Origin: an uncultured virus (IMG/VR IMGVR_UViG_3300029305_006210)
Taxonomy: Duplodnaviria; Heunggongvirae; Uroviricota; Caudoviricetes
Length of the DNA: 20,000 nt
IMG/VR virus record: IMGVR_UViG_3300029305_006210
Span: 56,873-76,872 of that record
Reading direction: 5' to 3' (one strand)
In this document: positions 329 to 19,559 of the stretch, in pieces
Position numbering within the stretch: the first letter of the stretch is position 1
Layout of the letters: each line of letters begins with the position of its first letter
Translations under genes and position numbers: made by a program
Notes under the pieces: model-generated
Told to the model about the DNA's origin: nothing
What the model saw: the letters and a program-made list of their open reading frames with translations, nothing else
The model's database searches: none

Positions 329-622
329 TTATACATCAAGAAATTCTAATAAATCGTCTTGACTAATATTTACCTCACCGTCCGTCCAATCAATTGTATC
401 GTAGCCAAATATAAATCCAGGTTCTTTGCCAATATTATCAGCAGGCACTCCTACAAAACCCATACTATTAGGGCCACCTATTGCTCTAATATAGACATAA
501 GAACCTCTGAGATTATAACATTTATCATCCACTATGTACGTCGAATACATTTCACCAAGTTGTATGTCATCTCTAATACGAATTATATTTCCTTCCTTAA
601 AATCAGGATGTTTAAATTTCAT
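329..622 (-). CDS. Small phage protein, SH3-like family (K.G.xxRxRxDL), with C-terminal LxxFL tag
   Basis: FKEGNIIRIRDDI; ends ISQDDLLEFLDV. Confidence 0.75.
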   Translation of the reverse strand: MKFKHPDFKEGNIIRIRDDIQLGEMYSTYIVDDKCYNLRGSYVYIRAIGGPNSMGFVGVPADNIGKEPGFIFGYDTIDWTDGEVNISQDDLLEFLDV

Positions 623-626
623 ATTA

Positions 627-929
627 TCACACTCCTAAAAAATTGAATAAATCACATATATCTATGGCAAGATCAGGGCTTAAAATGTTATATTCTGATA
701 AATCAAACATCTCTGTGGTCCAAAACCAACCTCCTGCTTCTTTAACATAAAATTTCCCATTTAGACCTATCGCTGTTATAGTTACACGTTTTCCAGCAAA
801 CTTTACCATTTGAGGAGTCGCAAAATCAGCGGCAGTGTTATAATTTTCATATGTTTTTCCTTGCAAATCTGATCTTACTAACACTTTATCGCCCACTTCA
901 GGCACAAGTAGACCTTTAATATATTTCAT
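627..929 (-). CDS. Small phage protein, SH3-like family, with C-terminal LxxFL tag
   Basis: EVGDKVLVRSDL...WFWTTEMF; ends IDICDLFNFLGV. Confidence 0.8.
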   Translation of the reverse strand: MKYIKGLLVPEVGDKVLVRSDLQGKTYENYNTAADFATPQMVKFAGKRVTITAIGLNGKFYVKEAGGWFWTTEMFDLSEYNILSPDLAIDICDLFNFLGV

Positions 930-951
930 TTTTTAATTACCTCTTTTTTTT

Positions 952-1169
952 ATATTCTCTAATCTAAATATTATTTGGATACCGAGAAGGCTGCTTAACG
1001 CGTGACGTCATCCGGAAGATTCCGGTGAGAAAGTTGTGTTATTTCGCATATGCGGATGGGCTCAGTGACCTGGAGACCTGCGTGCTCCTTCCTGGTTATT
1101 TATGAACAATTCGAAAACTCTGATTACACCAAGAGCTGTTTTTTAAAAAAACAATGCATTAGAAAATAT
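952..1169 (-). ncRNA. Retron-like msr/msd element A
   Basis: Terminal inverted repeat ATATTTTCTAAT (1169-1158) / ATTAGAGAATAT (963-952), unpaired G at 1157, a small hairpin, then AGCTCT-TGGTGTAATC-AGAGTT (1137-1116). GC-rich structured interior. Confidence 0.75.
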
Positions 1170-1172
1170 TAA

Positions 1173-1574
1173 TTATATATTTAAAAAATTCATTAAACTG
1201 TTTTGATATATTACCATTTTAGGCACTTTTTCAAATTCAATATCTGTAAATAGATAGTCTGTAATCTCAGTCCCATTGTCTAAACTACTACTTCCATCGC
1301 AGTGAATATGCAGTATTCCATCACAATCTTCTGCACAATAAATAGAAACCCACTCATTAAATTCAAACTCAAATACTTCTCTTTCTTTAACCCTTTTTAA
1401 ATCGTCTAAGAGCGTGGAATTTGAATATACTGTTATATCTAAAAAACTTTCTAAATATAACATTGTTTGCAGAAACTCTTCTCTTGTCTCACATATTATT
1501 CCAATGGCTTCTGGGTTTGTCCAATGTAATAAAAATCTATTAATATCAAATTTAATTTTTTCTCCGACTGCCAT
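1173..1574 (-). CDS. Hypothetical protein with C-terminal LxxFL tag
   Basis: 133 aa, RBS AGGAG; KFDINRF near the N-terminus resembles the MYDIDRF family; ends IYQNSLMNFLNI. Confidence 0.75.
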   Translation of the reverse strand: MAVGEKIKFDINRFLLHWTNPEAIGIICETREEFLQTMLYLESFLDITVYSNSTLLDDLKRVKEREVFEFEFNEWVSIYCAEDCDGILHIHCDGSSSLDNGTEITDYLFTDIEFEKVPKMVIYQNSLMNFLNI

Positions 1575-1601
1575 AACTAAAATCTCCTTATTGTTTAAAT
1601 T

Positions 1602-1934
1602 TTATTGATCTAAGAAAGAAAATAAATCTTGAGAAGAGATATTTATTTCCATTACAGGTTCTAACATTTGATCATTAAACACCCACGTTTTTATACCTTT
1701 TAATCTATAAAATTTCTCATGGCCTTCTAATTGCATTACTTCAGTTTCCATGCCACGGAAACATTCCATTTCTTCGGCAAAATGAAGAGGTGAATCACCT
1801 TGGTATAAATAAAGATGATCATCAAAATCGTAATCATCTTTTCCATTTGGAAATTTTGAATTATAATATAATCCACCTATCAAATCTTGTCTTATTCTAA
1901 CTGTGTCACACACTTTAAAATTCTTACAACTCAT
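1602..1934 (-). CDS. Small phage protein, SH3-like family, with C-terminal LxxFL tag
   Basis: FKVCDTVRIRQDL...WVFNDQML; ends ISSQDLFSFLDQ. Confidence 0.8.
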   Translation of the reverse strand: MSCKNFKVCDTVRIRQDLIGGLYYNSKFPNGKDDYDFDDHLYLYQGDSPLHFAEEMECFRGMETEVMQLEGHEKFYRLKGIKTWVFNDQMLEPVMEINISSQDLFSFLDQ

Positions 1935-1936
1935 AA

Positions 1937-2197
1937 TTACCCCTTTAAAAAATTTTGCAAATCTTCAAGTTTTATTTCTTGAGGCCAATAAATTTGTTCA
2001 CCAAATGCTATTTCATAAGCTTTTAAAATTTCTTCTTTTGTCATATCAAAAGTATCATCATCATAAGATTTTAGAGTTTCAAACGAAGTACCACGTCCGC
2101 ATCTATGATCATTCCACTCTCTATCTATCGGACACTGTGAACAAAAAATTGGCGAACAAAATTCATTTAATTTTTTACGATATTTAATTAGTTCCAT
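1937..2197 (-). CDS. Cys-rich small protein (C..CxxC..CGRGT), possibly metal-binding, with LxxFL tag
   Basis: Paralog of 2199..2450; ends IKLEDLQNFLKG. Confidence 0.8.
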   Translation of the reverse strand: MELIKYRKKLNEFCSPIFCSQCPIDREWNDHRCGRGTSFETLKSYDDDTFDMTKEEILKAYEIAFGEQIYWPQEIKLEDLQNFLKG

Positions 2198-2198
2198 A

Positions 2199-2450
2199 TT
2201 AGTTTCCTAAAAATTCATTTAAGCTTTCTAAAGATATATTATCAATAATTATTGTTATATCTTTATTAAATACAGTTTTATATATCCTGATGATTTCTTC
2301 ATCTGACATATCATATTGATCATTATTTTTTTTAAAAGTAAAATGCGTACCACGCCCACATCTATATTTAGCACCTTCTAAAATACAATTATCACACGTT
2401 CTTTTACTATCGCAGAAGCGCGAGAGTTCTTTCCTATATTTTGTTAACAT
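2199..2450 (-). CDS. Cys-rich small protein (C..CxxC..CGRGT) with LxxFL tag
   Basis: KYRKELSRFC..CDNC..RCGRGTHF..YDMSDEEI aligns with its neighbour; ends ISLESLNEFLGN. Confidence 0.8.
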   Translation of the reverse strand: MLTKYRKELSRFCDSKRTCDNCILEGAKYRCGRGTHFTFKKNNDQYDMSDEEIIRIYKTVFNKDITIIIDNISLESLNEFLGN

Positions 2451-2458
2451 ATCTCCCC

Positions 2459-2779
2459 CTACATTAAAAAATCCATCAATTTTGATTTTGATGGAAAGAT
2501 AGCAGAACTACATTCTGGAGTTAAGTTTAAAATATGTTTAATTTGATAGCCTTTTTGAATACATTCGTATCTAAGTCTTGTTTTCCTTTTCAGCAAATTA
2601 TTATGACAAACTGATCCTAAGTAACATATTTCAGGTTCTATAATAATTACACCACGATTTTTTTGTTGCTTACTAAATGAGATTTCAACATTGTAATTTT
2701 TTACAATCCATTCGCAGGCTATTTTAAATTGTTCATATGTATCAAATAAAATTATTAATTTATTATGCTTTTTCTTCAT
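2459..2779 (-). CDS. Hypothetical protein with LxxFL tag
   Basis: Ends FPSKSKLMDFLM; 4-bp overlap with the upstream gene. Confidence 0.75.
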   Translation of the reverse strand: MKKKHNKLIILFDTYEQFKIACEWIVKNYNVEISFSKQQKNRGVIIIEPEICYLGSVCHNNLLKRKTRLRYECIQKGYQIKHILNLTPECSSAIFPSKSKLMDFLM

Positions 2780-3162
2780 ATTTCTAAAAAATCTTTTAAA
2801 GATATCTCAGATGGGAAAACGCCGTATACTAATTCGCTACAAGTAATCGTTTTATGAGTTATAAATTTTCGTCCTTCATTAAATAAAGGATATGTAATAT
2901 AATCATCTGGTGAATAATTTTGTGTTGCTCGTACATATTCTTTACATCTAATAAACATAGAACTACCTGCCTCGAAAAATAAAGCATACTCATCGTCTTC
3001 GGTCATTGCATATTCCATATGATCAGTCCAATCTGTATAACCTGAGGTATTTTCATTACCTGTACACCATTTTACTTCCGGATGATGGATTTCTAACCAT
3101 TGTAATGCATCAAAAACTTCGCTTTTATTATTACAAACAATAGCAGCATAATTAAAAGCCAT
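2776..3162 (-). CDS. Hypothetical protein, WxxG family, with LxxFL tag
   Basis: LQWLEIHHPEVKWCTG; ends FPSEISLKDFLEI. Confidence 0.8.
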   Translation of the reverse strand: MAFNYAAIVCNNKSEVFDALQWLEIHHPEVKWCTGNENTSGYTDWTDHMEYAMTEDDEYALFFEAGSSMFIRCKEYVRATQNYSPDDYITYPLFNEGRKFITHKTITCSELVYGVFPSEISLKDFLEI

Positions 3163-3166
3163 AACT

Positions 3167-3529
3167 TTACTCCTTTAAAAAATATAGTAAATCATCTTTT
3201 GAAATTGTATTTATAGGTAAAATATCCTTAGCATTAAAAATATGAGTTTTTCTCAGATTATTTACATGACATATATCACTAAAATATGATTGGCCGTGAC
3301 ATTTTTTTGATCTAAAAAATACAAAAGACTTTTTTAATAAATTGCTCTGTTTTATACATAACACTATTTCATCGTCATGTGGTATTTCACAATTAAGTAT
3401 GATTTCATGAAAAGTTGAAACTAATAGTTCATTTGATTTCCAACGTAACTTCGGGTAAACCCTTTCTAGATGACTAAGACATTGAAGAGCTTCATTAATT
3501 CCAAAGCATTTATATATTTCTTTTATCAT
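3167..3529 (-). CDS. Hypothetical protein, WxxG-related family, with LxxFL tag
   Basis: LSHLERVYPKLRWKS; ends ISKDDLLYFLKE. Confidence 0.75.
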   Translation of the reverse strand: MIKEIYKCFGINEALQCLSHLERVYPKLRWKSNELLVSTFHEIILNCEIPHDDEIVLCIKQSNLLKKSFVFFRSKKCHGQSYFSDICHVNNLRKTHIFNAKDILPINTISKDDLLYFLKE

Positions 3530-3541
3530 AATAATGCCTTT

Positions 3542-3844
3542 CTATATTAAAAAATCCATCAAATCGGAATTTGACGGAAATTTCATTGTGGAGTTTATTA
3601 TTTTTTGTATTGTAATTTCTGATTTAGGTGCTATTTTAGATGTTACTAAGTTAAATCGATCACACCAACACAGCTCATTATTATATACCATTAAATACAT
3701 TGGAAATTTTAATACTTTTGGTCGATGTTTTGTAGGTTTTCCTAATCCTAATACCCAATGCAACTCTGGATATTTATATTCAAGATAGTTTAATGCCATA
3801 TTAACTTCAGAATAACTATCACATTTTATAAAATAATTTTTCAT
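3542..3844 (-). CDS. Hypothetical protein, WxxG family, with LxxFL tag
   Basis: LNYLEYKYPELHWVLGLGKPT; ends FPSNSDLMDFLI. Confidence 0.8.
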   Translation of the reverse strand: MKNYFIKCDSYSEVNMALNYLEYKYPELHWVLGLGKPTKHRPKVLKFPMYLMVYNNELCWCDRFNLVTSKIAPKSEITIQKIINSTMKFPSNSDLMDFLI

Positions 3845-4234
3845 TTAATCCTCCAAAAATTCAAGCAAATCCAACTTTGATGGATATTCTATAGGTTGAT
3901 ACTTATAAAATGGATAACGCGTTTCCTTATAATCAATAGAAGATTTTGTATAAAAATTTATATAATATCGCGGAAATTTATATGTGAATTTAATAAATTT
4001 TCTTATTTGAAAAACATTTCTCCTATCATTCCATTCCCAATCCTCACTGGTTAACCAATCGCTAGGTATTCCTTTACGTATTGATAATGCCTTCGCCCCT
4101 TTAATTCTCGGCATCCATTTGATTCTTGTTTGATGCTCTATATCTTTTAAAAGACTTGCAAATTCATTATAATTTTTAACCTCAATGACAAAGGGTGCTG
4201 GAAATTCCAGTTTAATTATTTTTTTAATATTCAT
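3845..4234 (-). CDS. Hypothetical protein, WxxG-related family, with LxxFL tag
   Basis: LKDIEHQTRIKW; ends YPSKLDLLEFLED. Confidence 0.75.
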   Translation of the reverse strand: MNIKKIIKLEFPAPFVIEVKNYNEFASLLKDIEHQTRIKWMPRIKGAKALSIRKGIPSDWLTSEDWEWNDRRNVFQIRKFIKFTYKFPRYYINFYTKSSIDYKETRYPFYKYQPIEYPSKLDLLEFLED

Positions 4235-4566
4235 TATATATCACCTATAAATTTCAATAATTCTTCTTGCGAAGGAAATATACAATTTTCATCTTTACAT
4301 TGATAAAATACAACATCTGACCATGGAATTTCATCATAATATTTGGAACATCCCATACTACCAAAGCTAATACTAATGTATCCAGGGATAAATGCAGGAG
4401 TGTATCCAGTTGGTCTTTCTCCGGCATGCCATCTTATTTCAGTTTCTCTTTCTATAAAAGAAAGCACCTTATTTGCCTCTTGTAATGTTTGATAAAGGAC
4501 TCGAATATCTTCGCGCTCATTTTTTATATATGCGACTAAATCATCAAAACTAATTGTTTCTATCAT
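4234..4566 (-). CDS. Hypothetical protein, WxxG family, with LxxFL tag
   Basis: LSFIERETEIRWHAGERPT; ends FPSQEELLKFIGDI. Confidence 0.8.
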   Translation of the reverse strand: MIETISFDDLVAYIKNEREDIRVLYQTLQEANKVLSFIERETEIRWHAGERPTGYTPAFIPGYISISFGSMGCSKYYDEIPWSDVVFYQCKDENCIFPSQEELLKFIGDI

Positions 4567-4582
4567 TTTATGCTCCTTAATT

Positions 4583-4900
4583 TTAATTTAAAATATCCAT
4601 CAACATAGACTCTGATGGATATTTATATAAAAGGTCTGATGCATTAATAACTTTGAAATCCAAGTATCGTGTAGGAATATTGCCATTTATAAATAAATTA
4701 TATTTTTCACTACTTTCATCTTTGGTAAGACTATTTCCTCTAAGATATAATATACCTTGTCCTTTAAATATAGCGCTAGGTTTATAATCTAATGAATCGC
4801 CAGTACACCATTTTATAAGTGGATAGTTATTAGCCAGCCACTTTAAACATGGCTCACATTCTCCATTATCACACATAATAATAGTTTTATTTTCTATCAT
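4583..4900 (-). CDS. Hypothetical protein, WxxG family, with LxxFL-like tag
   Basis: LKWLANNYPLIKWCTG; ends YPSESMLMDILN. Confidence 0.8.
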   Translation of the reverse strand: MIENKTIIMCDNGECEPCLKWLANNYPLIKWCTGDSLDYKPSAIFKGQGILYLRGNSLTKDESSEKYNLFINGNIPTRYLDFKVINASDLLYKYPSESMLMDILN

Positions 4901-4902
4901 AA

Positions 4903-5211
4903 TTAAGCCTCCAAAAATTTTGTTAACGACGCTTCATCTGGTAGTGGTAATATAACTTCATTAAATACAGATTCAATTTCATCAAAACCTATATATACAT
5001 CTATTATCATTGATAAATCACTCCTTTTTCGCACCCAACTTAATTGATTATTGTTAATGATAAATATTGCATCCCCTTGTATAACTAACGCTTCTGTTGG
5101 ACGTCGTCCAGATGTCTTCCATCTAACCATTGGTAAATTAGCTTCAATAACTTCTAAACACGCTCTTGATTGATTACTATTTTTGCAGCAAATTGCAATA
5201 TTTTTATTCAT
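4903..5211 (-). CDS. Hypothetical protein, WxxG family, with LxxFL tag
   Basis: VRWKTSGRRPT; ends LPDEASLTKFLEA. Confidence 0.8.
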   Translation of the reverse strand: MNKNIAICCKNSNQSRACLEVIEANLPMVRWKTSGRRPTEALVIQGDAIFIINNNQLSWVRKRSDLSMIIDVYIGFDEIESVFNEVILPLPDEASLTKFLEA

Positions 5212-5216
5212 ATTTT

Positions 5217-5555
5217 TTACCTATTCAAAAATTCCACCAAACTACTTTCTGATGGCAAAATATTATAAGAAATATTATATTGTCTTTCTAAATCGCCAAA
5301 TTCAATAATCTTGCAATCAGAATACATATCAGCACAATAAACTTTATCATCAAATAATTTTCCATAAGTTAGGCGAAAATCTTTTATATAAAAGGCTACT
5401 CCTTTTTTAAAAATTTTAGATAAATAACTTGAAACAGGATTTATCGGACTATTCCCTGATCGCCATCTTACAGTAGTTTCATTTTCAAGAAACTGTAGAA
5501 AAACATCTGATTCTTCTTGATTTCTACATACGACTATCATATTGTTTATTATCAT
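5217..5555 (-). CDS. Hypothetical protein, WxxG family, with LxxFL tag
   Basis: FLQFLENETTVRWRSGNSP; ends LPSESSLVEFLNR. Confidence 0.8.
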   Translation of the reverse strand: MIINNMIVVCRNQEESDVFLQFLENETTVRWRSGNSPINPVSSYLSKIFKKGVAFYIKDFRLTYGKLFDDKVYCADMYSDCKIIEFGDLERQYNISYNILPSESSLVEFLNR

Positions 5556-5587
5556 AAAATTTACCTATTTTACACCATATAACTATA

Positions 5588-5905
5588 TTAACTTTCTAAA
5601 AATTCCAATAGACTATTTTGTGAAATGAATTTAAAATTCATTATTTTACAAAATTCATCGAAACTCAAATTAGTTTCAGGGTTAAGAAATTTTGCTACTT
5701 CATCTAAATAATCCCATGATAATCTATCATCTTCTATAAAAAAGACAACCTGATGTGTTATGGGAAATGCTATTTTAAGAGTTGGTATCTTATGCCCTGT
5801 TTGCCATTTTACATCTGTAAATTCGTAAAGCAATTGTAAAAAAGTTTCAACTTCCACCTTTTCCATACATGTTACTGTTATATTATTTAATTTCATAACT
5901 TTCAC
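5588..5905 (-). CDS. Hypothetical protein, WxxG family, with LxxFL tag
   Basis: FLQLLYEFTDVKWQTGHKIPT; ends ISQNSLLEFLES; true start may be the ATG at 5896. Confidence 0.75.
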   Translation of the reverse strand: MKVMKLNNITVTCMEKVEVETFLQLLYEFTDVKWQTGHKIPTLKIAFPITHQVVFFIEDDRLSWDYLDEVAKFLNPETNLSFDEFCKIMNFKFISQNSLLEFLES

Positions 5906-6163
5906 CTATTTTAAGAAGTCCATCAAATTTTCCTTTGATGGAAAAGTAGTATTTCCGAGGTCTAACATCTCAAAAGTATAATACCATGAATAAGTGTTTG
6001 TCTTTAGATATACCGACCTCTTTAAAATTTCAAGCACTTCAAAACCTTGAAATTTCAACGGTTTCATTCCTTCCCAATAAGGCAAACCGTTATATTCTTG
6101 ACCAATTACCAAATCTTGTCTCAAATAGACGATATCTCCCACTTTTATGCCTGGATTTACCAT
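5906..6163 (-). CDS. Small phage protein, SH3-like family, with LxxFL tag
   Basis: IKVGDIVYLRQDL...WYYTFEML; ends FPSKENLMDFLK. Confidence 0.8.
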   Translation of the reverse strand: MVNPGIKVGDIVYLRQDLVIGQEYNGLPYWEGMKPLKFQGFEVLEILKRSVYLKTNTYSWYYTFEMLDLGNTTFPSKENLMDFLK

Positions 6164-6164
6164 T

Positions 6165-6446
6165 TTAGTCCTCCAAGAATTCCATCAAAGACGCATTTGA
6201 TGGAAAAGTATAATTATATGCAAATACATCTTGATATTCAAAAGCTATTCTACGTTCGCTTATAGCTGTTACATACACACCATCATCATATACATAGTAT
6301 GTATTTACATACTCCTCATATAATTCTGTTGGAGCTTGTATAAATAATCCTTGTTCTTTTACTAGACGTAAAAATGTTCTAACATCTTCAACTGTTCTAA
6401 TATACACAGAAGATTTTCCGTCTACCCAAGATTCCCAATCAAACAT
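6165..6446 (-). CDS. Hypothetical protein with LxxFL tag (distant MxDxxxF family)
   Basis: Starts MFDWESW; ends FPSNASLMEFLED. Confidence 0.75.
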   Translation of the reverse strand: MFDWESWVDGKSSVYIRTVEDVRTFLRLVKEQGLFIQAPTELYEEYVNTYYVYDDGVYVTAISERRIAFEYQDVFAYNYTFPSNASLMEFLED

Positions 6447-6448
6447 AA

Positions 6449-6751
6449 TTATTCTCCTAAAAATTGCTTCAAGCTGGACTCAGAAATTTTTGTAATAATA
6501 AGCAGATCTGCTGCTTTAATAGACTCCCAACCATACTGTACATGGAAGTCATCGGGGCCCATTAGTATACGTTTTCTATCCTCCCAGTTATATACAACAG
6601 CATATGGCTGTTTATTTATAACATCTTCCCAAAAGCTTGATTTTTGACCTATTCCTCTTTTTGCGCAACAATCTGCAAAATCTAATATTTCTTGTTCATT
6701 ATCAAAATTTACACTTAATTTTTCATTTATAAATCTGTCAATATCGTACAT
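6449..6751 (-). CDS. Hypothetical protein, MYDIDRF paralog family, with LxxFL tag
   Basis: MYDIDRF...YGW...DL; ends ISESSLKQFLGE. Confidence 0.8.
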   Translation of the reverse strand: MYDIDRFINEKLSVNFDNEQEILDFADCCAKRGIGQKSSFWEDVINKQPYAVVYNWEDRKRILMGPDDFHVQYGWESIKAADLLIITKISESSLKQFLGE

Positions 6752-6766
6752 GATTTTTGAACTCCT

Positions 6767-6986
6767 ATTTTTTCTAATCTAAATTATCATGAAGGCGACG
6801 TATCCGGATGGCATATATTACATTTTTGCAAGCGAAGTATTGATTACGTCTTGCGAGTTTAGCTATTTGTGGTTGTATAAGGTGTTGGAATTCCAACCTG
6901 ATACTCATTTGCCCGAAAGTATCATCACGAGCTGCGAGACCAGATCTTGATGATCCTCCATGTCACTCCTTGACAATATGAAAATT
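6767..6986 (-). ncRNA. Divergent or partial retron-like element B
   Basis: Same 3' end as A and C (GATAATTTAGATTAGAAA), same ~220 nt size, 5' hairpin TGTCA-AGGAG-TGACA and many internal hairpins, but no GGTGTAATC hairpin and only weak terminal pairing. Confidence 0.5.
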
Positions 6987-7277
6987 TTATTCTTTTAAAA
7001 AATCCATCAGATTTTGCTCTGACGGATATTTCTCTTTTATTATTAAATCAGAAAATGGAATTATATCCCATCCATGTTTTAATAAAAAATTATTTTTCGC
7101 ACATGTATCTATATAGTTATGTCCTGACCACCCATATAAATATTTCCAATGTGAATAGTATGGCATTGTTACAGGTATATTGTTATTGCTACATATAACA
7201 CAGAAGGTTATATATTCATCCTCATTTTTAAACTTAAGGGCGATATTATCATGTTTAAATCTATCAATGTCGTACAT
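6987..7277 (-). CDS. Hypothetical protein, MYDIDRF paralog family, with LxxFL tag
   Basis: Close paralog of 7521..7808; ends YPSEQNLMDFLKE. Confidence 0.8.
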   Translation of the reverse strand: MYDIDRFKHDNIALKFKNEDEYITFCVICSNNNIPVTMPYYSHWKYLYGWSGHNYIDTCAKNNFLLKHGWDIIPFSDLIIKEKYPSEQNLMDFLKE

Positions 7278-7291
7278 AATAATCTCCTATA

Positions 7292-7511
7292 AATTTCTCT
7301 CTAATCTAATTATCGTAAGGAGGATCTGCTCTTCCTGGCAAAAAACCGGCGTGATTGGATTGTTAGTTGCCCACTTTCCTATAGAAAATTATTCTATTGC
7401 CAGCTTTGTGTGCGGGCCCTGCAGCTGGGTCGTCCCCCATTCTGCTCTGGCCATGTGAAAACCTTGATAACACCTAAGGCCACCTTTTTAAAGTAATACA
7501 TTAGAGAAATT
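7292..7511 (-). ncRNA. Retron-like msr/msd element C
   Basis: Terminal inverted repeat TCTCTAAT (7507-7500) / ATTAGAGA (7305-7298), G at 7499, hairpin GGCCTT-AGGTGTTATC-AAGGTT (7481-7460), GC-rich hairpin interior. Confidence 0.75.
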
Positions 7512-7520
7512 ATTGTAATT

Positions 7521-7808
7521 TTATTCTTTTAAAAAATCCATCAAATCTTGTTTTAACGGAAAATTTGGTATTATTAGTTCAGAAAAATTGTATATTATCC
7601 ATCCTTTAACTGTTAAAAAATTATCTGATGAACATGTTTGTATTTTTCTCACTCCATTAAATCCATATAAATAAGTTTTTTTTAAACTGTAGTTACAAGT
7701 ATTAATGATTTGATTTTTTTTGCAAATACCTTCAAATATCATATATTCATCTTTATTTGCAAACCGAATAGCAATTTTTTCATATTTAAATCTATCAATA
7801 TCAAACAT
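7521..7808 (-). CDS. Hypothetical protein, MYDIDRF paralog family, with LxxFL tag
   Basis: MFDIDRFKYEKIAIRF; ends FPLKQDLMDFLKE. Confidence 0.8.
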   Translation of the reverse strand: MFDIDRFKYEKIAIRFANKDEYMIFEGICKKNQIINTCNYSLKKTYLYGFNGVRKIQTCSSDNFLTVKGWIIYNFSELIIPNFPLKQDLMDFLKE

Positions 7809-8130
7809 TATCTTCCTCCAAAAAGTTTAATAGAGTATCCTTCGATATTTGTTTGCTCACCATTAAATCCTTAACAAATATAAATGGTTTATCTCCTCTA
7901 TATGTTGACATTGCACCATATCTTAACTTTAATAAAGAACTCCCTTCATTTGTTCCGTATCTTACATATGGATTTTGTGATGACTTAAACTTGTTACTAA
8001 TTATTCTTTTGAGAAATTTATAATCACCTCTTAAATTATTTTTTTGTGAGATGTCAAGAACATAATCCATTTCTTTTTCATTTATTACTACTATTGGATA
8101 ACCATTCTTCAAATAATATATTAAATCCAT
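7801..8130 (-). CDS. Hypothetical protein with LxxFL tag
   Basis: Ends ISKDTLLNFLEEDNV; overlaps the next gene by 8 bp. Confidence 0.75.
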   Translation of the reverse strand: MDLIYYLKNGYPIVVINEKEMDYVLDISQKNNLRGDYKFLKRIISNKFKSSQNPYVRYGTNEGSSLLKLRYGAMSTYRGDKPFIFVKDLMVSKQISKDTLLNFLEEDNV

Positions 8131-8134
8131 TTTT

Positions 8135-8389
8135 TTACTCCATTATGAATAATAAACTGCTATGATTATGATTTGTAGCATTACTATTATGCTTAGGCAT
8201 TATAGTTATTATCTTTTTCCTAAGCAACTGCGCACTTATATTTTTAATACAAACTGTTTCTTTGGGGTGTTCTTTACCATATATATGAATAAAAATTTCA
8301 TCATCCGGATTAAGTCCAATAATTTTAATAGCTTCTTTTAATGAAATTTTTTTATCTTTTTCTTCTTTAGCTTTTTTAGGCCTTGCCAT
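8135..8389 (-). CDS. Small basic hypothetical protein, first gene after the RT and element D
   Basis: MARPKKAKEEKDKK, strong RBS GAGGAGG; lacks the LxxFL tag. Confidence 0.75.
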   Translation of the reverse strand: MARPKKAKEEKDKKISLKEAIKIIGLNPDDEIFIHIYGKEHPKETVCIKNISAQLLRKKIITIMPKHNSNATNHNHSSLLFIME

Positions 8390-8406
8390 ATTTTCCTCCT
8401 CATAAG

Positions 8407-8600
8407 TTTATAACTTAATACAGAGGAAGCGTCTGCACTTCTTCCTCTGCTTTTTGTATAAGTTATAAAAATTTTCAAGACTTCAGAAGCGCCTAGCGCT
8501 GCTGATCGTCTTGAAAATTATGTGTTACTGTGTTCAATAACCATTTGTTAATTCTGATTACACCTAGAACTACCCGCTTAATGCTGGTAATGTGCAGAAT
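8407..8600 (-). ncRNA. RT-adjacent structured RNA, element D
   Basis: Begins about 10 nt after the RT stop. Hairpin TACC..GGTA (8589-8571), AGTTCT-AGGTGTAATC-AGAATT (8571-8550), then two long hairpins at 8470-8519 (12-bp perfect base) and 8407-8469. Confidence 0.75.
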
Positions 8601-8610
8601 CTTTTTCTAT

Positions 8611-9918
8611 TTATTGACCGTTTTTGATATCGGCCTTAATAGCTCCTCTTATATCTCCAAATTTTCGTGAGTATTCGTCTATAATATGCTCTATAGTTTC
8701 TGGTTCAATAGATTTACAATATGAAATTTCACCTTGTAAATGCTGCACATCTTCTTTACTCCACATGCACCCTTTATTTCTATCTAACATATAATTCGAC
8801 AATATGGCTTTTAATTGCTTTTTCCTTTTATGTCCCACTGTTGGAGTATGACTTTGGTTAAGCATTAAACCTAACATCCAGTTAGATCCAGCATTTGAAC
8901 CATATCTTGTTTTGCTATCATTTAAAGAAAAAGGCGCATCGTAATGCGCCAGTACTTTCTTTATGTAATCTACTATTTCATGATGGTTAAATTTAAACCT
9001 ATTTGATATCATAATGTCATCAGCATATCGAGTATAAACAAATCCACATTCATTTTCCGCGAAAATCTTATTGCTCTTTAAGGCATTTGACAGATGATGG
9101 TCTATAGGAATCATCATTATATTTGTTAATATTGGTGACATTGGTGTACCCTGAGGCAAACCGCCGTTCAAGAAACATAAGTTCAGGCAATTTTTTACTG
9201 CCCGCTTACCCCGTGAACTTCTCATGATTTCTGAAAAAGGATATATGTCAGAAAACATTCTCATTACATATTCTAATGAGGTACTACCAAAAAAGTTTGA
9301 GAAGTCAATTTTTAGAAACCAATTGCTCTTATTATTTGCATGTTTCATAACAGCGTCCTTAGTGCTTCTGTTGTTGATATATGCAAACGCTGCGGTATGA
9401 TAATAACATCCATCCATAAGGATCTCGAAGGCTAATTTCATATGGCTTAAGCAATCTTTTAACTCATCACATGGAGCATCAATACGTCTCCACTTTTTGT
9501 GCCCAGGCTCTGAACTTGCTTTGGGAATGAAAAATGTATCGTACATATGAGAATATTTTAATCCCATTGTCGCCATTTCTTTTGCAGCTTCATGTTTTGC
9601 TGCGTCTTTATCTAGCCCTGCCCTTTTGTATTTCCTTATTAAATCTACTTGAAGTTCGTAGTTATAATCTGGATGTCCATTATTAATATCCAAGTGTTGA
9701 TATTTTTTATACAACTTCTCTAAAATTTCAATCTGTTTTGGAATATTTAATTCTGTCAATTTTTCAAGTGAAATACTATCATAGTAATATGTTCTTGTTC
9801 CGGTAGTCTGATATTTTGTAGGAGGCCGTAACATATCTACAGTTACTAAGTCATTAAGAAAGTCGAGCAAATCAATCTCTTTCTTTCTCGGCTTTAACCT
9901 GGTTGTTACATAAGGCAT
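8611..9918 (-). CDS. Reverse transcriptase, retron-like
   Basis: RT motifs KxxxxGxxKWRRIDAP, KIDFSNFFGS, LPQGTPMSP, YTRYADD, and MLG at the retron VTG position; no maturase or endonuclease domain visible. Confidence 0.93.
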   Translation of the reverse strand: MPYVTTRLKPRKKEIDLLDFLNDLVTVDMLRPPTKYQTTGTRTYYYDSISLEKLTELNIPKQIEILEKLYKKYQHLDINNGHPDYNYELQVDLIRKYKRAGLDKDAAKHEAAKEMATMGLKYSHMYDTFFIPKASSEPGHKKWRRIDAPCDELKDCLSHMKLAFEILMDGCYYHTAAFAYINNRSTKDAVMKHANNKSNWFLKIDFSNFFGSTSLEYVMRMFSDIYPFSEIMRSSRGKRAVKNCLNLCFLNGGLPQGTPMSPILTNIMMIPIDHHLSNALKSNKIFAENECGFVYTRYADDIMISNRFKFNHHEIVDYIKKVLAHYDAPFSLNDSKTRYGSNAGSNWMLGLMLNQSHTPTVGHKRKKQLKAILSNYMLDRNKGCMWSKEDVQHLQGEISYCKSIEPETIEHIIDEYSRKFGDIRGAIKADIKNGQ

Positions 9919-9933
9919 CTTTTCACCTCCTCT

Positions 9934-10632
9934 TTATACTGCTGCCATCATATCATCACGTCCAAATGTATCGATAGCGTGAAACTTTGAATTGTAAAAC
10001 ATGGTTTTCTGTAATGCCTTTTTATCCTTTACAAAATGAACAAAGTTTTGAATTCCACAATTTACGATTCCAGTGATTGTATAGAAGATACTTAATGTTT
10101 CTCTACATGCTGACATCGGTGTTTGTTCTCTAGCTTCTTCGTCAGTGAAATCCATTGATGCATAGAGATCATCCTTCATCTTTACACTGCTCCAATCTGC
10201 AGCATAATGCTGTGCGTCTTCAAGCCTCATTCTGAAATCAAACATTGCTACAACATTTGGATTGTACTTATTTGCTTCTACGATCTTTTTTCTAATTTCA
10301 ATAGAATCAACTGCAATGAATACATACCCATTAAGCTGCTGATTAGTATAGAAACCTTTTGTCTGAATGAAATGTTCGATATCTGGGTTTACCTCGATCA
10401 ACATATCCTTTAATGCTTCAGTCTTTTGACGTCCAATATCAATAGAACGATACATCTGATTTGCTACATTCTTAGATTCAACAACATCTTCATCATATAA
10501 AACAAAGTTTGTTAATCCAAGTTTTGCTAACATATAAGCGAGTGTGGATCCAATAGCTCCACACCCTACAATATGAATCTTCTCAGTAACAGTTTCAGGC
10601 TGAAAAAATTCGTGATGTTTATTTAAATTCAT
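9934..10632 (-). CDS. ThiF/E1-like ubiquitin-activating enzyme
   Basis: IVGCGAIGS nucleotide-binding loop, LYDEDVVESKNVANQ, GRQKTEAL, AVDS; candidate catalytic Cys in MSAC. Confidence 0.9.
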   Translation of the reverse strand: MNLNKHHEFFQPETVTEKIHIVGCGAIGSTLAYMLAKLGLTNFVLYDEDVVESKNVANQMYRSIDIGRQKTEALKDMLIEVNPDIEHFIQTKGFYTNQQLNGYVFIAVDSIEIRKKIVEANKYNPNVVAMFDFRMRLEDAQHYAADWSSVKMKDDLYASMDFTDEEAREQTPMSACRETLSIFYTITGIVNCGIQNFVHFVKDKKALQKTMFYNSKFHAIDTFGRDDMMAAV

Positions 10633-11744
10633 TACTTTTCCTCCTCGGCTTCTACCTCTAATGTTATAAGTAACATTTCCTTCTGTTCTTTGTCTGTTTT
10701 TACTTCCACAGATTTCACGCTTAATCCCATAACAAGTCTAATAGCACTTACACTTGTCATATCTACAAGTACACCCTTTTTATCTACCACCTTGAAATAT
10801 GCATACTTTTTATCGAGGCAATAATCGAAAATTGACATTGCTACTGAATTTGGTGCAGTTAACGGATCATCTGTTTTGGCAGTTGTAAGATCTTTGAAAG
10901 CATATTCATTACCAAAATAATCTTTGCATGTAACATCATAATATTTAGGATAGATCGTATAAATTTCATAGATTGATGAATTAGTCGGTTTAAAAGTAAC
11001 AGCATAACTTTTAGGAATAAACTCATTATCTGTTTTCTTTTCTGCAGACATGTATCCATCAAGCCACTGATCCCAATCATACATGTCACTAGCATAATTA
11101 TTTAATGGATATATGTCTTGTTTCGTCTCTTTTTTCTTCGAATAAAGGTATGACCCTGGTAACGGCTGTTTCTTTTCTCCGCCGCCGAAGAGAAAGTATG
11201 TAGATGATTTAGGGCTAGGAATATCTTTAACAAGCTTCTTGCTTTCTTCATAGTATTCTGAATTAGAAAGACCTTCTTCTACTTCAATAACGATTACAAT
11301 ATCGCTATTCTTATATTCAATACTATCCTCTGCGTCCATGATCCACCATGTCATTTCCATTTTTTTATTCATTATCATAGCAATCGTGAATCGCTTATCA
11401 TTAGCAGCAGCATTTGATGTTGCGAATCTTTTCCATGATTCAGTATCTGTTGATGATGGTGACACACTCATATTTACATGAGAATGACCATGAAAACGTC
11501 TGGAGTTGTATTCTTCATCTGAGAGGCTATCTTTCCATTCGATCATTTCATCTAATGACTCATCAATTGTATCTTCTACATAGGCTGAAGATACTAATTG
11601 TGGATAAATCAGAATATCTTTAATTCTGTATTCGCCAACGGCAATTTTTTCTACTGTACCGAACCAGCCCACTTCTTTATCATGCCCGATGACTAACGCC
11701 TGCATCTTAATCCATGCAGATGGTGAAATTCTAACTTTAGCCAT
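10632..11744 (-). CDS. JAB/MPN+ domain metalloprotease with C-terminal extension
   Basis: N-terminal EVGW glutamate and HSHVNMSVSPSSTD, matching HxHx7Sx2D. Confidence 0.88.
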   Translation of the reverse strand: MAKVRISPSAWIKMQALVIGHDKEVGWFGTVEKIAVGEYRIKDILIYPQLVSSAYVEDTIDESLDEMIEWKDSLSDEEYNSRRFHGHSHVNMSVSPSSTDTESWKRFATSNAAANDKRFTIAMIMNKKMEMTWWIMDAEDSIEYKNSDIVIVIEVEEGLSNSEYYEESKKLVKDIPSPKSSTYFLFGGGEKKQPLPGSYLYSKKKETKQDIYPLNNYASDMYDWDQWLDGYMSAEKKTDNEFIPKSYAVTFKPTNSSIYEIYTIYPKYYDVTCKDYFGNEYAFKDLTTAKTDDPLTAPNSVAMSIFDYCLDKKYAYFKVVDKKGVLVDMTSVSAIRLVMGLSVKSVEVKTDKEQKEMLLITLEVEAEEEK

Positions 11745-11747
11745 AAT

Positions 11748-13142
11748 TTATTCAGCCTCCTTTTCCTTTCTAATATACTCAATTGCTCCTGCAATATCTT
11801 CAAATTCACCATTCGGTAATTCAATACACTTATTTTCACAAACACCCTTTAACAGATACACGCCAGCGGCATCGTCTGATAATGTGATTTGTTTTGCGGC
11901 ATATAAGATCTGATTTAATGCTTCGACAAATCTATTTGCAATTGAGTATTGTGCAATTCTTGTTTCAGAATTTCCAAAACAAGAATAATGTGCTCCAAGA
12001 TGTGGATGTGGCATTGAATTTTTGCTTGCGACTTTTTCTGCATGTACCCTTCCAGATACAATGTTCAGATCAATCTTCATACTTGTCCATAATTTGAATT
12101 CATTAGTCTCTGCAATTCTTCTGTAGAACTCCTTGATTTCTTCTGTTGTAAATGAGCCATAAACCTCCCTTATGAACTCTTTTGGCACATCACCATTGCA
12201 ATGCTCCAGCTTGCCGAACATGTATGAAGTTCCATTATTATCTCTAATGATACTGTAATAATCTTCTTCTTCGGTAAACTGATCCAACATTGCAGTAATT
12301 TCAAAGGTAATAGTTTCATCATTAACGTTTGCAATTGAAATTTTTTCTCTACTTGATTCAATGAATTCTACAATTTCCATAACTGGTGAATGCATTGCGT
12401 CTCTATCCATTCTCATAGATCTTAATGCATTTTGCTGCTGCTTCAGCTCCATATTATAGTTATATATACTTTCAAAACGCTCTCTGATACGCTCTTCGAT
12501 CTCCTTGACTCTTCTTTCCGCTTCAACGACTTTTTTCTCAGTAATTCTATCAGCCATTTTCAGCATTTTATTCATTAATACTTTATCACTAAGGCCAAGT
12601 TCTGTTACCATGGCTTCAAATTCGAGCTGAAATTTTGGAAGTAATTCATTATTAATGAACATTGGTGCAATCTCTTTTGAAATTTTTTCAGTTCCGGCAC
12701 TGAAATACCATGGAAATAACTTAGTTGCGATTGCACAGAATATCTTTTCTGTATAGCTATTGAAGACAGAATAGCCTGTTGAATTATTTCTTGTTACATG
12801 AATAACTCTCATATCAGGATTGATGTAAATTTTATATTTAGGCTGATCATCCTGAATTCCCTGACTTACAAACATACTTATAAGTTCATTGTAACATTCT
12901 TCCATGTAAGGAGAGCCACCAATGATTATGGCATTTTTTGCATTTGTCAGATCGTGTGAAGAATTATCTTCCAGTGTAATAATTTTTAATTTTTCTTCTT
13001 CATAAACATAACTTTCGATAGAAAGTAAGTGCTTATATAATAAGAACATTTTTAACATAGTTGAATATGAAGAGAAACTGTTTACATCAATTTCATTGTC
13101 ATATAACTCAAAAATTGATTTTTCGATATCCGGGTTTAACAT
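11748..13142 (-). CDS. Putative prokaryotic E2-like protein with central coiled coil
   Basis: C-terminal PHPHLGAHYSCFGN resembles the E2 HP(N/H)...C signature; coiled coil at about aa 200-250; lies between Ubl and JAB/E1 genes. Confidence 0.6.
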   Translation of the reverse strand: MLNPDIEKSIFELYDNEIDVNSFSSYSTMLKMFLLYKHLLSIESYVYEEEKLKIITLEDNSSHDLTNAKNAIIIGGSPYMEECYNELISMFVSQGIQDDQPKYKIYINPDMRVIHVTRNNSTGYSVFNSYTEKIFCAIATKLFPWYFSAGTEKISKEIAPMFINNELLPKFQLEFEAMVTELGLSDKVLMNKMLKMADRITEKKVVEAERRVKEIEERIRERFESIYNYNMELKQQQNALRSMRMDRDAMHSPVMEIVEFIESSREKISIANVNDETITFEITAMLDQFTEEEDYYSIIRDNNGTSYMFGKLEHCNGDVPKEFIREVYGSFTTEEIKEFYRRIAETNEFKLWTSMKIDLNIVSGRVHAEKVASKNSMPHPHLGAHYSCFGNSETRIAQYSIANRFVEALNQILYAAKQITLSDDAAGVYLLKGVCENKCIELPNGEFEDIAGAIEYIRKEKEAE

Positions 13143-13174
13143 GCGATTTTCCTTTCTTTTTTTTAATTATTGGG

Positions 13175-13463
13175 TTTATTACAATCTAATAGTGAGAATT
13201 ATAACGCTGCAGATGATCAAAGAAGGTTTTAACCTTTTAAGTTAACTGCGTTATATCAGGTAATCAGTGATATTCTGATTGTGAATTAACCTAGAAGTTA
13301 TGTATTTTTATCCCGAGCGAAGTATTTCGTTGAATAAAGATTTGCGTTTAACTTCTTTATAATGAATTAATTAGCTTCCTGCCTCCAGTCGTTTTCTCTA
13401 GACCATATGAATACTCGGATTACACCGCGAGCAGTTTTATAAAAAACAATACATTGTAATAAA
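13175..13463 (-). ncRNA. Retron-like msr/msd element E
   Basis: Perfect 11-bp terminal inverted repeat TTTATTACAAT (13463-13453) / ATTGTAATAAA (13185-13175), G at 13452, hairpin TGCTCG-CGGTGTAATC-CGAGTA (13433-13412), several internal hairpins (e.g. 13293-13356). Confidence 0.78.
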
Positions 13464-13486
13464 AAAAGCGGGGATTTCTCCCCGCT
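13461..13486 (-). terminator. Rho-independent terminator after the Ubl gene
   Basis: AGCGGGGA-GAAA-TCCCCGCT followed by a T-tract. Confidence 0.8.
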
Positions 13487-13504: not shown

Positions 13505-13753
13505 CTAAGCAGCGTTGCTTGTCTTGATTGTTTCGTACAGCATAATTGTAGCGCCGTTGGATGCAAGACCTGCATCAACAATCTGATCAAATGTCATATC
13601 CAGCTGAGTTTCAGTCAGCATTGTTCCACCGATTGAGAACTTTGCTCCCATCATAGCATTCTTATCCTGAAGATAATTTCTAACTGTTGTTGTACCTGAT
13701 ACGATTTCTTCTGCATGTCTCTGTGCGCTTGCGATGAACTTAACTTTTACCAT
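13505..13753 (-). CDS. Ubiquitin-like (beta-grasp) protein
   Basis: 82 aa with beta-grasp pattern (MVKVKFI...TTVRNYL...IGGTML...LDMTF...IML); upstream of E2/JAB/E1; ends KTSNAA with no Gly. Confidence 0.7.
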   Translation of the reverse strand: MVKVKFIASAQRHAEEIVSGTTTVRNYLQDKNAMMGAKFSIGGTMLTETQLDMTFDQIVDAGLASNGATIMLYETIKTSNAA

Positions 13754-14445: not shown

Positions 14446-14666
14446 TAATGTTTTATATCACCTAAGAATTCTTCATTAGGCAACTTTTTTGTATCTATAA
14501 CCCCTTTTTCTATTATTTGTATGAGGATTGTATCCTCATCATATCTAATAACCGTTGTTATTCGGCCGTTGATATCTCTATCGTCAAGTAACACATGGTC
14601 AAACGGATCATTATGATAGTAGTTATACACTGATTCTTTGAACTGTTCCGCTGTCAATCTCGACAT
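14445..14666 (-). CDS. Hypothetical protein
   Basis: Likely start MSRLTAEQ at 14666 behind GGAGG. Confidence 0.7.
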   Translation of the reverse strand: MSRLTAEQFKESVYNYYHNDPFDHVLLDDRDINGRITTVIRYDEDTILIQIIEKGVIDTKKLPNEEFLGDIKH

Positions 14667-15378
14667 GATTAACACCTCCAATAAAATCTTCTAATGCAAT
14701 TGGATTTATTATATATTTACTACGATCAAACTTTGGTTTGTCATATTTAATTTCTTCTATAGGCCATGATAATTCTTTGCAAATTTCTTCAAATGAATAG
14801 TAGTTTAAGTTAGGATCTCCTGGTTCATAACTATATACATATCCACAATCTCCATATGTATAATCATTGGACATGTCTGAGCCATATTCATCCCAGTCAA
14901 CATAATCTTGAAATTCTTCAGGGCATTGATTATATCCTAATGTATATCCTAAACAATATAAATTACTACCATTATCACATTCATAACTATAATAGTATAT
15001 ATTTTCAACATCCAAACAGGCATTAATAAGTTCAAGAGCATTACATATATTTCCTTCTGCACCTTGATATAAATTTACCGCTTCTTCTTCGTGTCTATCC
15101 AAATTATCAAATGCTATTGCTATTAAATTAATCATTATAAGATTTTTTTCATTGCATATTATATCGTCAAAACTACAATCTATTGTAGCATAAACCATAT
15201 CACAATCAGTTAGCATCTCACATGGGATGTCACTAGTATCTTTTCGCCAATTAGGATATTGTTCTATCGGAATTCCGATATCCCTATAAGCGCGCTCAAT
15301 TATCTTCCAAGTAACCGGAAGATTAAGCATTACACTATATTCTGTAATTGGATTTTTCAGATGAACTCTTATATTCAT
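14623..15378 (-). CDS. ardA: ArdA-like antirestriction (acidic DNA-mimic) protein
   Basis: Acidic; PEEFQDYVDWDEYGSDM...GY matches the ArdA C-terminal pattern PE.L..Y.D.E.YG.D. Confidence 0.65.
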   Translation of the reverse strand: MNIRVHLKNPITEYSVMLNLPVTWKIIERAYRDIGIPIEQYPNWRKDTSDIPCEMLTDCDMVYATIDCSFDDIICNEKNLIMINLIAIAFDNLDRHEEEAVNLYQGAEGNICNALELINACLDVENIYYYSYECDNGSNLYCLGYTLGYNQCPEEFQDYVDWDEYGSDMSNDYTYGDCGYVYSYEPGDPNLNYYSFEEICKELSWPIEEIKYDKPKFDRSKYIINPIALEDFIGGVNHVEIDSGTVQRISV

Positions 15379-19472: not shown

Positions 19473-19559
19473 TAGTGCACAAGACGGGATTCGAACCCGC
19501 AACATTTCACTGTACAGCACTCGTCAGTGCTCTGCCTTGCTCATTTCAGCCACTTGTGC
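19473..19559 (-). tRNA. Type II (Leu-like) tRNA with aberrant anticodon loop, possible pseudo-tRNA
   Basis: Acceptor GCACAAG/CTTGTGC, long variable arm, T-loop TTCGAAT; anticodon arm AGCAC-TGACGA-GTGCT has a 6-nt loop; ends CTA rather than CCA. Confidence 0.6.

Follow-up and report, generated by a model that had tools for sequence, protein, structure and literature searches.

Three inverted-repeat elements of a tailed-phage genome are probably retron-type template RNAs that share one reverse transcriptase

In the genome of an uncultured tailed phage, three non-coding elements with terminal inverted repeats, here named A, C and E, occur together with a gene for a reverse transcriptase (RT). 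The question raised by this locus is whether they are template RNAs of a retron and whether a single RT serves all of them. Known retrons are anti-phage systems of bacteria in which each RT has one template RNA, and they have also become tools for genome editing. The DNA analysed here, referred to as the window, is a stretch of 20,000 nt (20 kb) that forms the last part of the linear IMG/VR virus record IMGVR_UViG_3300029305_006210 (76,872 bases, estimated 44% complete). Nearly all genes of the window are on the minus strand, and the window is read on that strand. From comparison of sequences we estimate a probability of about 0.72 that a retron encoded by the phage uses A, C and E as template RNAs of the msr-msd type. 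Retron-type template RNAs are the best explanation because of the RNA architecture, the covariation, the strict linkage to the strand of the RT and the type of the RT itself.

On the minus strand, elements A (948-1172), C (7292-7516) and E (13172-13468) are each closed by a terminal stem of 10-14 bp, the arms of which were also returned by a repeat finder. The original prediction had drawn attention to these arms, and its arm sequences and coordinates proved correct on the minus strand. In A, the 5' arm a1 (1169-1158) pairs with the 3' arm a2 (963-952) over 12 bp with one G-U, and the helix extends to 14 pairs with one mismatch. The 8-bp core given earlier for C is contained within a helix of 10 bp including one G-U (7509-7500 with 7305-7296). 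The stem of E (13463-13453 with 13185-13175) was said to be changed on both arms relative to A and C, and this holds, with pairing kept over 11 bp. A G directly after the 5' arm, 24-26 nt ahead of a conserved loop, had been claimed as well and is found at 1157 in A, 7499 in C and 13452 in E. Another G precedes each 3' arm and faces the first one (plus-strand C at 964, 7306 and 13186, respectively).

The candidate priming G is followed by two small hairpins and then by a putative template region. These are located at 1153-1137, 1136-1117 (loop GGUGUAAUC) and about 1116-965 in A, at about 7495-7481, 7480-7461 (loop GGUGUUAUC) and about 7460-7307 in C, and at about 13447-13434, 13433-13412 and about 13411-13187 in E. 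When each element is folded alone, the closing stem, an A/U-rich hairpin and then a hairpin with loop GGUGUWAUC are obtained (loop at 1130, 7474 and 13426 in A, C and E), with z-scores for the whole elements of -2.8 (A), -3.2 (C) and -2.2 (E). The hairpin-borne loop motif, and with it the 5' module, is present at four sites in the 76.9-kb genome, all inside the window. None of the 4227 Rfam models matches the three elements, or elements B and D described below, at gathering threshold. At E <= 10, the sole overlap with A-E is U4 small nuclear RNA (21 bits vs gathering 46, E 0.48), which we take as chance.

The RT (8611-9918, minus strand) is a protein of 435 aa with an N-terminal extension of about 110 aa. 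It matches Pfam RVT_1 (E 5.6e-22) and NCBIfam retron_St85_RT (E 2e-55), and the best 25 PADLOC models listed are all retron RTs, with RT_II-A at the top (5.9e-48). Among 13 PDB matches, eight are named as retron RTs and none as another RT class. A retron-clade RT is thus found on the same strand as the RNAs, and the retron reading of the original prediction stands at the level of sequence. No match to the RT block was obtained by megablast against 50,697 phage records; tblastn against phage records returned distant RTs only, the best with 34% identity.

Relatives of the locus were collected by scanning IMG/VR with an alignment of three RTs, which gave 219 relatives, of which 80 loci were kept; GTDB genomes supplied 30 further loci, mostly contigs of metagenome-assembled genomes (MAGs) binned with gut Clostridia. 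For the RNA family, an iterative nhmmer search was seeded with 11 5' parts that had been located by hand in the window and in two relatives. It yielded 162 matches at E <= 0.01 in 1.13 Mb, and all 162 are on the RT strand. Model it4 of this search drifted to a larger subgroup and left the window copies unscored (E 3.3 and 8.6); with the earlier models it0-it2, these copies reach 1e-10 to 8e-4. After merging of the iterations, 60 of 81 loci have elements, 169 in total and again all on the RT strand. No element was detected in 21 loci, most of them from a group with an RT identity of about 43%. The 30 MAG loci, none of which had entered model building, gave 20 matches, every one on the RT strand.

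Loci were also fetched by RNA motif instead of RT. Of 90 such loci, 22 contain a real element, in every case together with the RT on the same strand; many of these 22 are contigs seen before, which makes their independence weak. The remaining 68 hold neither element nor RT, the matches of the 15-mer scan being mostly chance ones. A strict scan with the RNA motif returned 10 contigs, nine of which were known before. The phage record with the 34% identical RT keeps the JAB-E1-RT gene order, and an element could be read by eye directly upstream of its RT: a1 and a2 pair over 13 bp with one G-U, a G follows a1 and UUUAG precedes a2. All these loci are from one phage lineage, and their co-occurrence is not independent.

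Most loci carry more than one element: one is found in 4 loci, two in 12, three in 35 and four in 9, so that 56 of 81 loci have two to four elements. A tandem pair is present in 35 of 81. Usually, one element lies between the E1 gene and the start of the RT and one or two follow directly after the RT; in most loci a copy is directly upstream of the RT start, and some loci have an extra element several kilobases beyond the RT. In the window, E heads a four-gene block that ends in the RT, and A and C lie downstream at 7.4 and 1.1 kb. Two relatives deserve mention in their own right. In L002 (6900-9330), retron-like elements are interspersed with an array of transfer RNA (tRNA) genes. In L069 (8101-8256), a 155-nt region between tRNA genes has a 13-bp inverted repeat with no G after it; this region may represent a divergent template RNA.

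The family consensus of the 5' part opens with a variable stretch; UGYAAU, the G and NAU come next, then hairpin 1, which varies, hairpin 2, which is well conserved, and finally a conserved block. A lack of conservation of the candidate G in homologs had been named beforehand as one outcome that would refute the original prediction, and the result is in favour of the prediction. Of the distinct 5' parts, 109 of 114 keep the G, as do all 17 distinct elements of the MAG set, and no other nucleotide near the stem is as conserved. All 83 elements with a clear stem have it, partly by selection, as the filter had removed five copies with A.

The closing stem was sought as the best helix 60-900 nt downstream, anchored at the base before the G, with G-U and one mismatch allowed. 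Helices of at least 8 bp were obtained for 83 of 97 distinct elements, at a distance of 154-353 nt (median 267). The remaining 14 comprise some stems of 6-7 bp in the right context, some elements cut by the end of the locus and the five A-bearing copies. Stems of at least 10 pairs were found in 80 of 117 elements, as compared with 12 of 117 when the downstream sequence was shuffled. Position of the anchor matters: the mean helix has 10.2 pairs when anchored before the G, 9.3, 8.8 and 8.3 when the anchor is shifted 1-3 bases upstream, and 7.8, similar to the shuffled control, when it is placed on the G. Several pair types occur at every helix position (for instance UA 52 and CG 30 at position 4, or CG 40, UA 22, AU 8 and GC 6 at position 7), so the stem covaries and ends just before the G. 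The compensatory terminal stem proposed for the three window copies is therefore a property of the relatives as well. In 80 of 83 elements a2 is preceded by G, within (A)UGUAG or AUUAG, a motif that was not used in the search; since G faces G in these elements, the helix cannot extend over the candidate G. The MAG set behaves in the same way, with stems of at least 8 bp in 16 of 17 elements (at 150-420 nt) and a G before a2 in all 16.

The two hairpins were analysed in an alignment of 70 sequences, composed of the three window copies and 67 of 86 dereplicated family 5' parts. Nineteen sequences were left out (near-duplicates, two odd ones and the five copies with A), and the invariant G of this alignment is thus partly a matter of selection. 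Hairpin 2 shows compensatory changes in all eight of its pairs, with 96.4% of cells paired. In hairpin 1, all six pairs show such changes and 68% of cells are paired; its variable loop is poorly aligned by MAFFT. The covariation score of the hairpins is 0.60, compared with 0.24 for shuffled alignments (none of 500 reaches the observed value) and 0.11-0.25 with slid partners.

Taken as a retron, the locus would work as follows. The ends of the RNA would pair through a1 and a2, setting the unpaired G at the 3' side of a1 opposite the G at the 5' side of a2. The RT is likely to take hold of the RNA by the two small hairpins that follow the unpaired G. The Gs at 1157, 7499 and 13452 are most likely the priming sites, judged by their conserved position at the end of the stem: the RT would use the 2'-OH of this G, and copying would begin at the base that precedes the facing G (plus-strand positions of about 965, 7307 and 13187) and proceed toward the hairpins. 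Expected products would be branched single-stranded DNAs (ssDNAs) of roughly 135-210 nt, distinct for each element.

We examined how the template regions compare between elements and between phages. The interiors of 83 template regions fall into 71 BLAST clusters. No template region finds a match elsewhere in the 76.9-kb genome, and in all fetched loci only orthologous elements are matched. Turnover was assessed on 133 orthologous pairs, which lack phylogenetic independence from one another, from loci with RT genes at least 95% identical. The RT gene has a median identity of 98.4% in these pairs and the 5' module one of 97.9%, as compared with 89.4% in the interior. Interior identity is below 80% in 26 pairs and below 60% in nine; the 5' module never falls below 80%. 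An alignment of five near-identical phages displays the same pattern of conserved ends and replaced interior. Between L008 on the one hand and L009 and L012 on the other (about 8500-8700), interiors are replaced in a cassette-like manner between flanks that are 96-100% identical. Sequencing runs listed as containing the sequence are all Logan DNA contigs, with no RNA run among them, and four of these gave low-depth fragments on comparison with the window. Variation is seen there in X7, a variant of the window sequence (record 26; single contig, depth 3.4), with 11 substitutions and 2 indels over 7320-7617. Ten of these differences are within element C, at 7340-7489, and none affects G7499, a1 or hairpin 2.

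Two further regions of the window resemble A, C and E in part. Element D (8395-8612, minus strand) lies immediately 3' of the RT gene, at a site occupied by full elements in relatives. Its 5' module is present, with hairpins 1 and 2 and loop GGUGUAAUC, and its closing repeat (8608-8592 with 8438-8422) is 76% complementary. D contains two long perfect hairpins, and none of the other four elements comes near the stability of its fold (z-score -8.0). Element B (6752-6986, minus strand) has in common with C only the last 25 nt or so (UUUAG-AUUAGA and the Shine-Dalgarno (SD) context) and the flanks. It possesses neither a1, the G, hairpin 1, hairpin 2 nor a terminal inverted repeat, and B is likely a remnant or an unrelated spacer.

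Several observations weigh against the retron reading. Classical msd regions are stable hairpins, and the template regions here are 130-240 nt long and weakly structured: the median z-score of their folds is -0.97, and only 14 of 83 are below -2 (mononucleotide shuffles). At E, a strong terminator-like hairpin (13467-13486, minus strand) stands directly after the gene of a ubiquitin-like (Ubl) protein and its U-tract is the first half of a1, so that termination and a1/a2 pairing may compete there. A and C are separated from the RT by the distances given above and stand in a polycistronic gene array, directly after a stop codon. The search for a2 as best complement is partly circular; its checks are the anchor slide and the facing-G motif.

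The G itself has exceptions. Five of the 114 distinct 5' parts have A in its place (L033 at about 12380, L035 at about 10033, L040 at about 10018, L031 at about 9685 and L055 at about 12993). Members of this subgroup keep hairpin 2, lack hairpin 1, have AAUACA for AAUG and no clear closing stem, and are located 3-6 kb downstream of the RT. D likewise has A at the G position and another A before its imperfect 17-nt closing repeat; it is probably a copy unable to prime. As for the RT, its score of 188 bits is under the curated St85 cut-off of 235, and because of this we consider that it is in the retron clade yet outside the named St85 family. Two motifs named as conserved in retron RTs (PMC7736814) are not kept. 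NAXXH is replaced in the window by AVMKH, aligned to NAKIH of Ec83, with only the H retained (consensus of the relatives' RT family, AVKRH), and VTG is replaced by MLG, aligned to VTG of Ec83, with only the G retained (NLG in relatives).

These exceptions can be accommodated if the RNAs belong to the RT and priming differs, whether from another nucleotide, from the RNA 3' end or from a protein, or if some copies only bind or titrate the RT. An RT devoid of NAXXH and VTG, template regions of atypical length and weak structure, and copies that keep hairpin 2 with A at the G position (D and the five of 114) would all agree with this, and the abstract of a recent preprint (10.1101/2025.10.22.683967) reports that type VI retrons depart from constitutive production of multicopy single-stranded DNA. 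The near-invariant G that ends a covarying stem and faces a conserved G is, on the other hand, precisely the geometry expected for 2'-OH priming, and we consider a different initiation unlikely. It is considerably less probable that the elements are cis-acting leader RNAs, such as regulators or processing sites in 5' untranslated regions, tied to the RT only by shared syntenic ancestry. Many a2 arms do have an SD and a start codon within about 5-30 nt, and A, C and E each precede a gene: A is followed by the SD and ATG of gene 627-929, C by those of gene 6987-7277, and E by p464, the first gene of its block. All loci, moreover, originate from one phage lineage, so that their co-occurrence with the RT is not independent. 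Many copies, however, precede another copy and not a gene, as in the 35 loci with tandem pairs, and the genes that do follow are mutually unrelated (RT, phosphoesterase, small open reading frames (ORFs)). Elements are never seen without the RT in the 22 motif-fetched loci that hold them, and the a1-G/G-a2 geometry would serve nothing in a simple leader.

Terminal inverted repeats are also what would be expected of small non-autonomous mobile elements resembling miniature inverted-repeat transposable elements, in which the arms would be recognised as DNA, and the window copies are indeed dispersed at sites that are empty in relatives. This origin is highly improbable: all 169 copies have one strand relative to the RT, the arms covary in a way that keeps pairing and not a fixed sequence, with G-U tolerated, the interiors differ among copies, which thus are not copies of one element, and no transposase is seen beside the elements. 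A phage-encoded RT that adjoins a non-coding template further recalls diversity-generating retroelements (DGRs), the elements then being their template repeats. This we regard as the most remote of the explanations, almost negligible. No variable repeat of any template region was found in the 76.9-kb genome or, outside the elements, in related loci; differences between template regions show no adenine bias, involving A no more than C or T (54%, 53% and 51%, respectively); and the RT matches retron models and not DGR models. Retron-type template RNAs therefore remain the preferred interpretation of A, C and E.

The retron-like locus is accompanied by a conserved set of genes resembling those of ubiquitin-like conjugation. 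On the minus strand, the order of the larger-gene block is an 82-aa protein, element E, p464, a JAB-like protein, a ThiF/E1-like protein, the RT and element D. The 82-aa Ubl protein (13505-13753) is modelled as a beta-grasp fold with a predicted local distance difference test score of 83, and among PDB entries it matches SUMO, ubiquitin and NEDD8 best, with a template modelling score of about 0.54. A 75-aa Ubl homologue ending ...KADNA precedes p464 in most loci looked at. The ThiF/E1-like adenylating enzyme (9934-10632, 232 aa) is recognised by ThiF with E 1.1e-18, and the JAB/MPN-like protein (10632-11744, 370 aa) by weak hidden Markov model matches (PADLOC 4.1e-6). The gene order p464-JAB-E1-RT is kept in relatives. 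By tblastn in the 81 loci, JAB is syntenic with the RT in 75, E1 in 76 and p464 in 43, the misses including loci cut by contig ends. These three genes are candidates for cognate effectors of the retron, in loci that all derive from one phage lineage.

p464 (11748-13142, 464 aa) belongs to no known family and contains a long coiled coil. It has no Pfam match even at E <= 1 and no Foldseek match in PDB at E <= 0.001. Its residues 251-442 possibly adopt a UBC/RWD-like (E2-like) fold, and His381, Cys388 and Gly390 are invariant within the family motif PNPHIxxYxCxGNY. Superposition of residues 251-422 on Ubc9 gives Z 6.8, tied with many coiled-coil rows, and the ESM atlas offers a sub-threshold Prok-E2_D lead with score 0.79. 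On these structural predictions, p464 as an E2 is possible, a lead and not a finding.

Other parts of the record encode a tape-measure protein, tail proteins, an integrase, DNA polymerase, primase and helicase, and further a ribonucleotide reductase, a Sak4-like annealing protein and enzymes for salvage of nicotinamide adenine dinucleotide (NAD). NAD synthetase, nicotinamide phosphoribosyltransferase and phosphoribosyl pyrophosphate synthetase are consecutive on the G000 contig (L116, 10133-13526) and make up an NAD-rebuilding set. A weak ArdA-like match is located in the window at 14623-15378. The window has four tRNA genes. A tRNA-like gene at 19475-19559 (minus strand) has an anticodon reported by ARAGORN as undetermined and an Rfam score of 37.7 bits. 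Another feature of the window is a row of 23 small ORFs on the minus strand at 329-8389. About 20 of them share the C-terminal peptide (P)Sxxx(S/D)L(L/M)xFLxx. In about eight, the PS and LMD codons form a perfect hairpin of 8-10 bp followed by a T-run, reminiscent of a terminator; the peptide motif is broader in occurrence than the hairpin.

How does this locus relate to systems already described? Bacterial retrons combine an RT with an msr-msd non-coding RNA (ncRNA) and are classified into types I-XIII (Mestre et al. 2020, PMC7736814); Ec86, Ec78, Ec83 and Ec67 are solved examples. The phage locus has in common with them an RT of the retron clade, an ncRNA closed by a1/a2 with a conserved unpaired G after a1 and covarying msr hairpins, and the location of this ncRNA on the strand of the RT gene, to which it is usually directly adjacent. 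Unlike bacterial retrons, it has two to four ncRNAs per RT (in 56 of 81 loci), of which some are tandem copies and others lie at distances of up to about 7 kb. Its templates of 130-240 nt have no dominant stable hairpin, and their interiors are replaced between phages with RT genes at least 95% identical. Further differences are the loss of NAXXH and VTG, the location in the genome (at least 76.9 kb) of a tailed phage, and the conserved neighbours, namely Ubl, a possible E2, the JAB-like protein and E1. ThiF, ubiquitin and JAB are not mentioned in the main text of PMC7736814.

Tandem arrangement of templates is known from engineered 'multitron' arrays, in which tandem msr-msd units with their own internal priming sites are placed on one transcript and served by one RT (10.1101/2023.07.17.549397). 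As presented there, multitrons are man-made, whereas the tandem and dispersed arrays described here are natural (a tandem pair in 35 of 81 loci). Viral clades of retron-like RTs, enriched in digestive-tract samples, have been reported in a metagenome survey (PMC13681634). The RT studied here resembles those clades in being virus-encoded and retron-like; the survey, in its accessible text, treats proteins and describes no template RNA. In the literature searched, which left subscription journals outside its coverage, we found no description of a phage retron that has more than one ncRNA or that is accompanied by ThiF/JAB genes.

Ubiquitin-like conjugation operons of bacteria include the Bil/Bub type and CBASS with Cap2/Cap3. 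The phage gene set is similar to these in combining a beta-grasp Ubl, a ThiF/E1 adenylating enzyme and a JAB-like protein. It differs in that the Ubl ends in ...KADNA and not in GG, in that E2 is only a lead, and in that the genes are phage-encoded and always adjoin a retron RT (of 81 loci, 75 have JAB and 76 have E1). This pairing of an RT with a ubiquitin-like conjugation gene set was not found in the literature searched.

Because template interiors outpace their flanks in turnover and the neighbours are of accessory or anti-defence type (ArdA-like, NAD salvage), the locus suggests a role in conflict of phage with host or of phage with phage. A more specific proposal, which we put forward only tentatively and hold to be rather doubtful, is that of a gut-phage multi-template retron with swappable templates, the ssDNA repertoire of which would act together with the Ubl module in counter-defence or phage warfare.

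For biotechnology, an RT that tolerates unstructured templates of 130-240 nt, several at once, would merit testing. As regards biology, the findings indicate that phages themselves carry retron-type systems, in which one RT appears to serve several distinct, long and weakly structured templates, and in which the template interior is a hot spot of replacement, pointing to selection on the sequence of the DNA product. If the tentative proposal above is true, one RT serves two to four template RNAs in a widespread lineage of gut phages, and these would provide a small, fast-evolving repertoire of ssDNAs, that is, retrons used by viruses and not against them.

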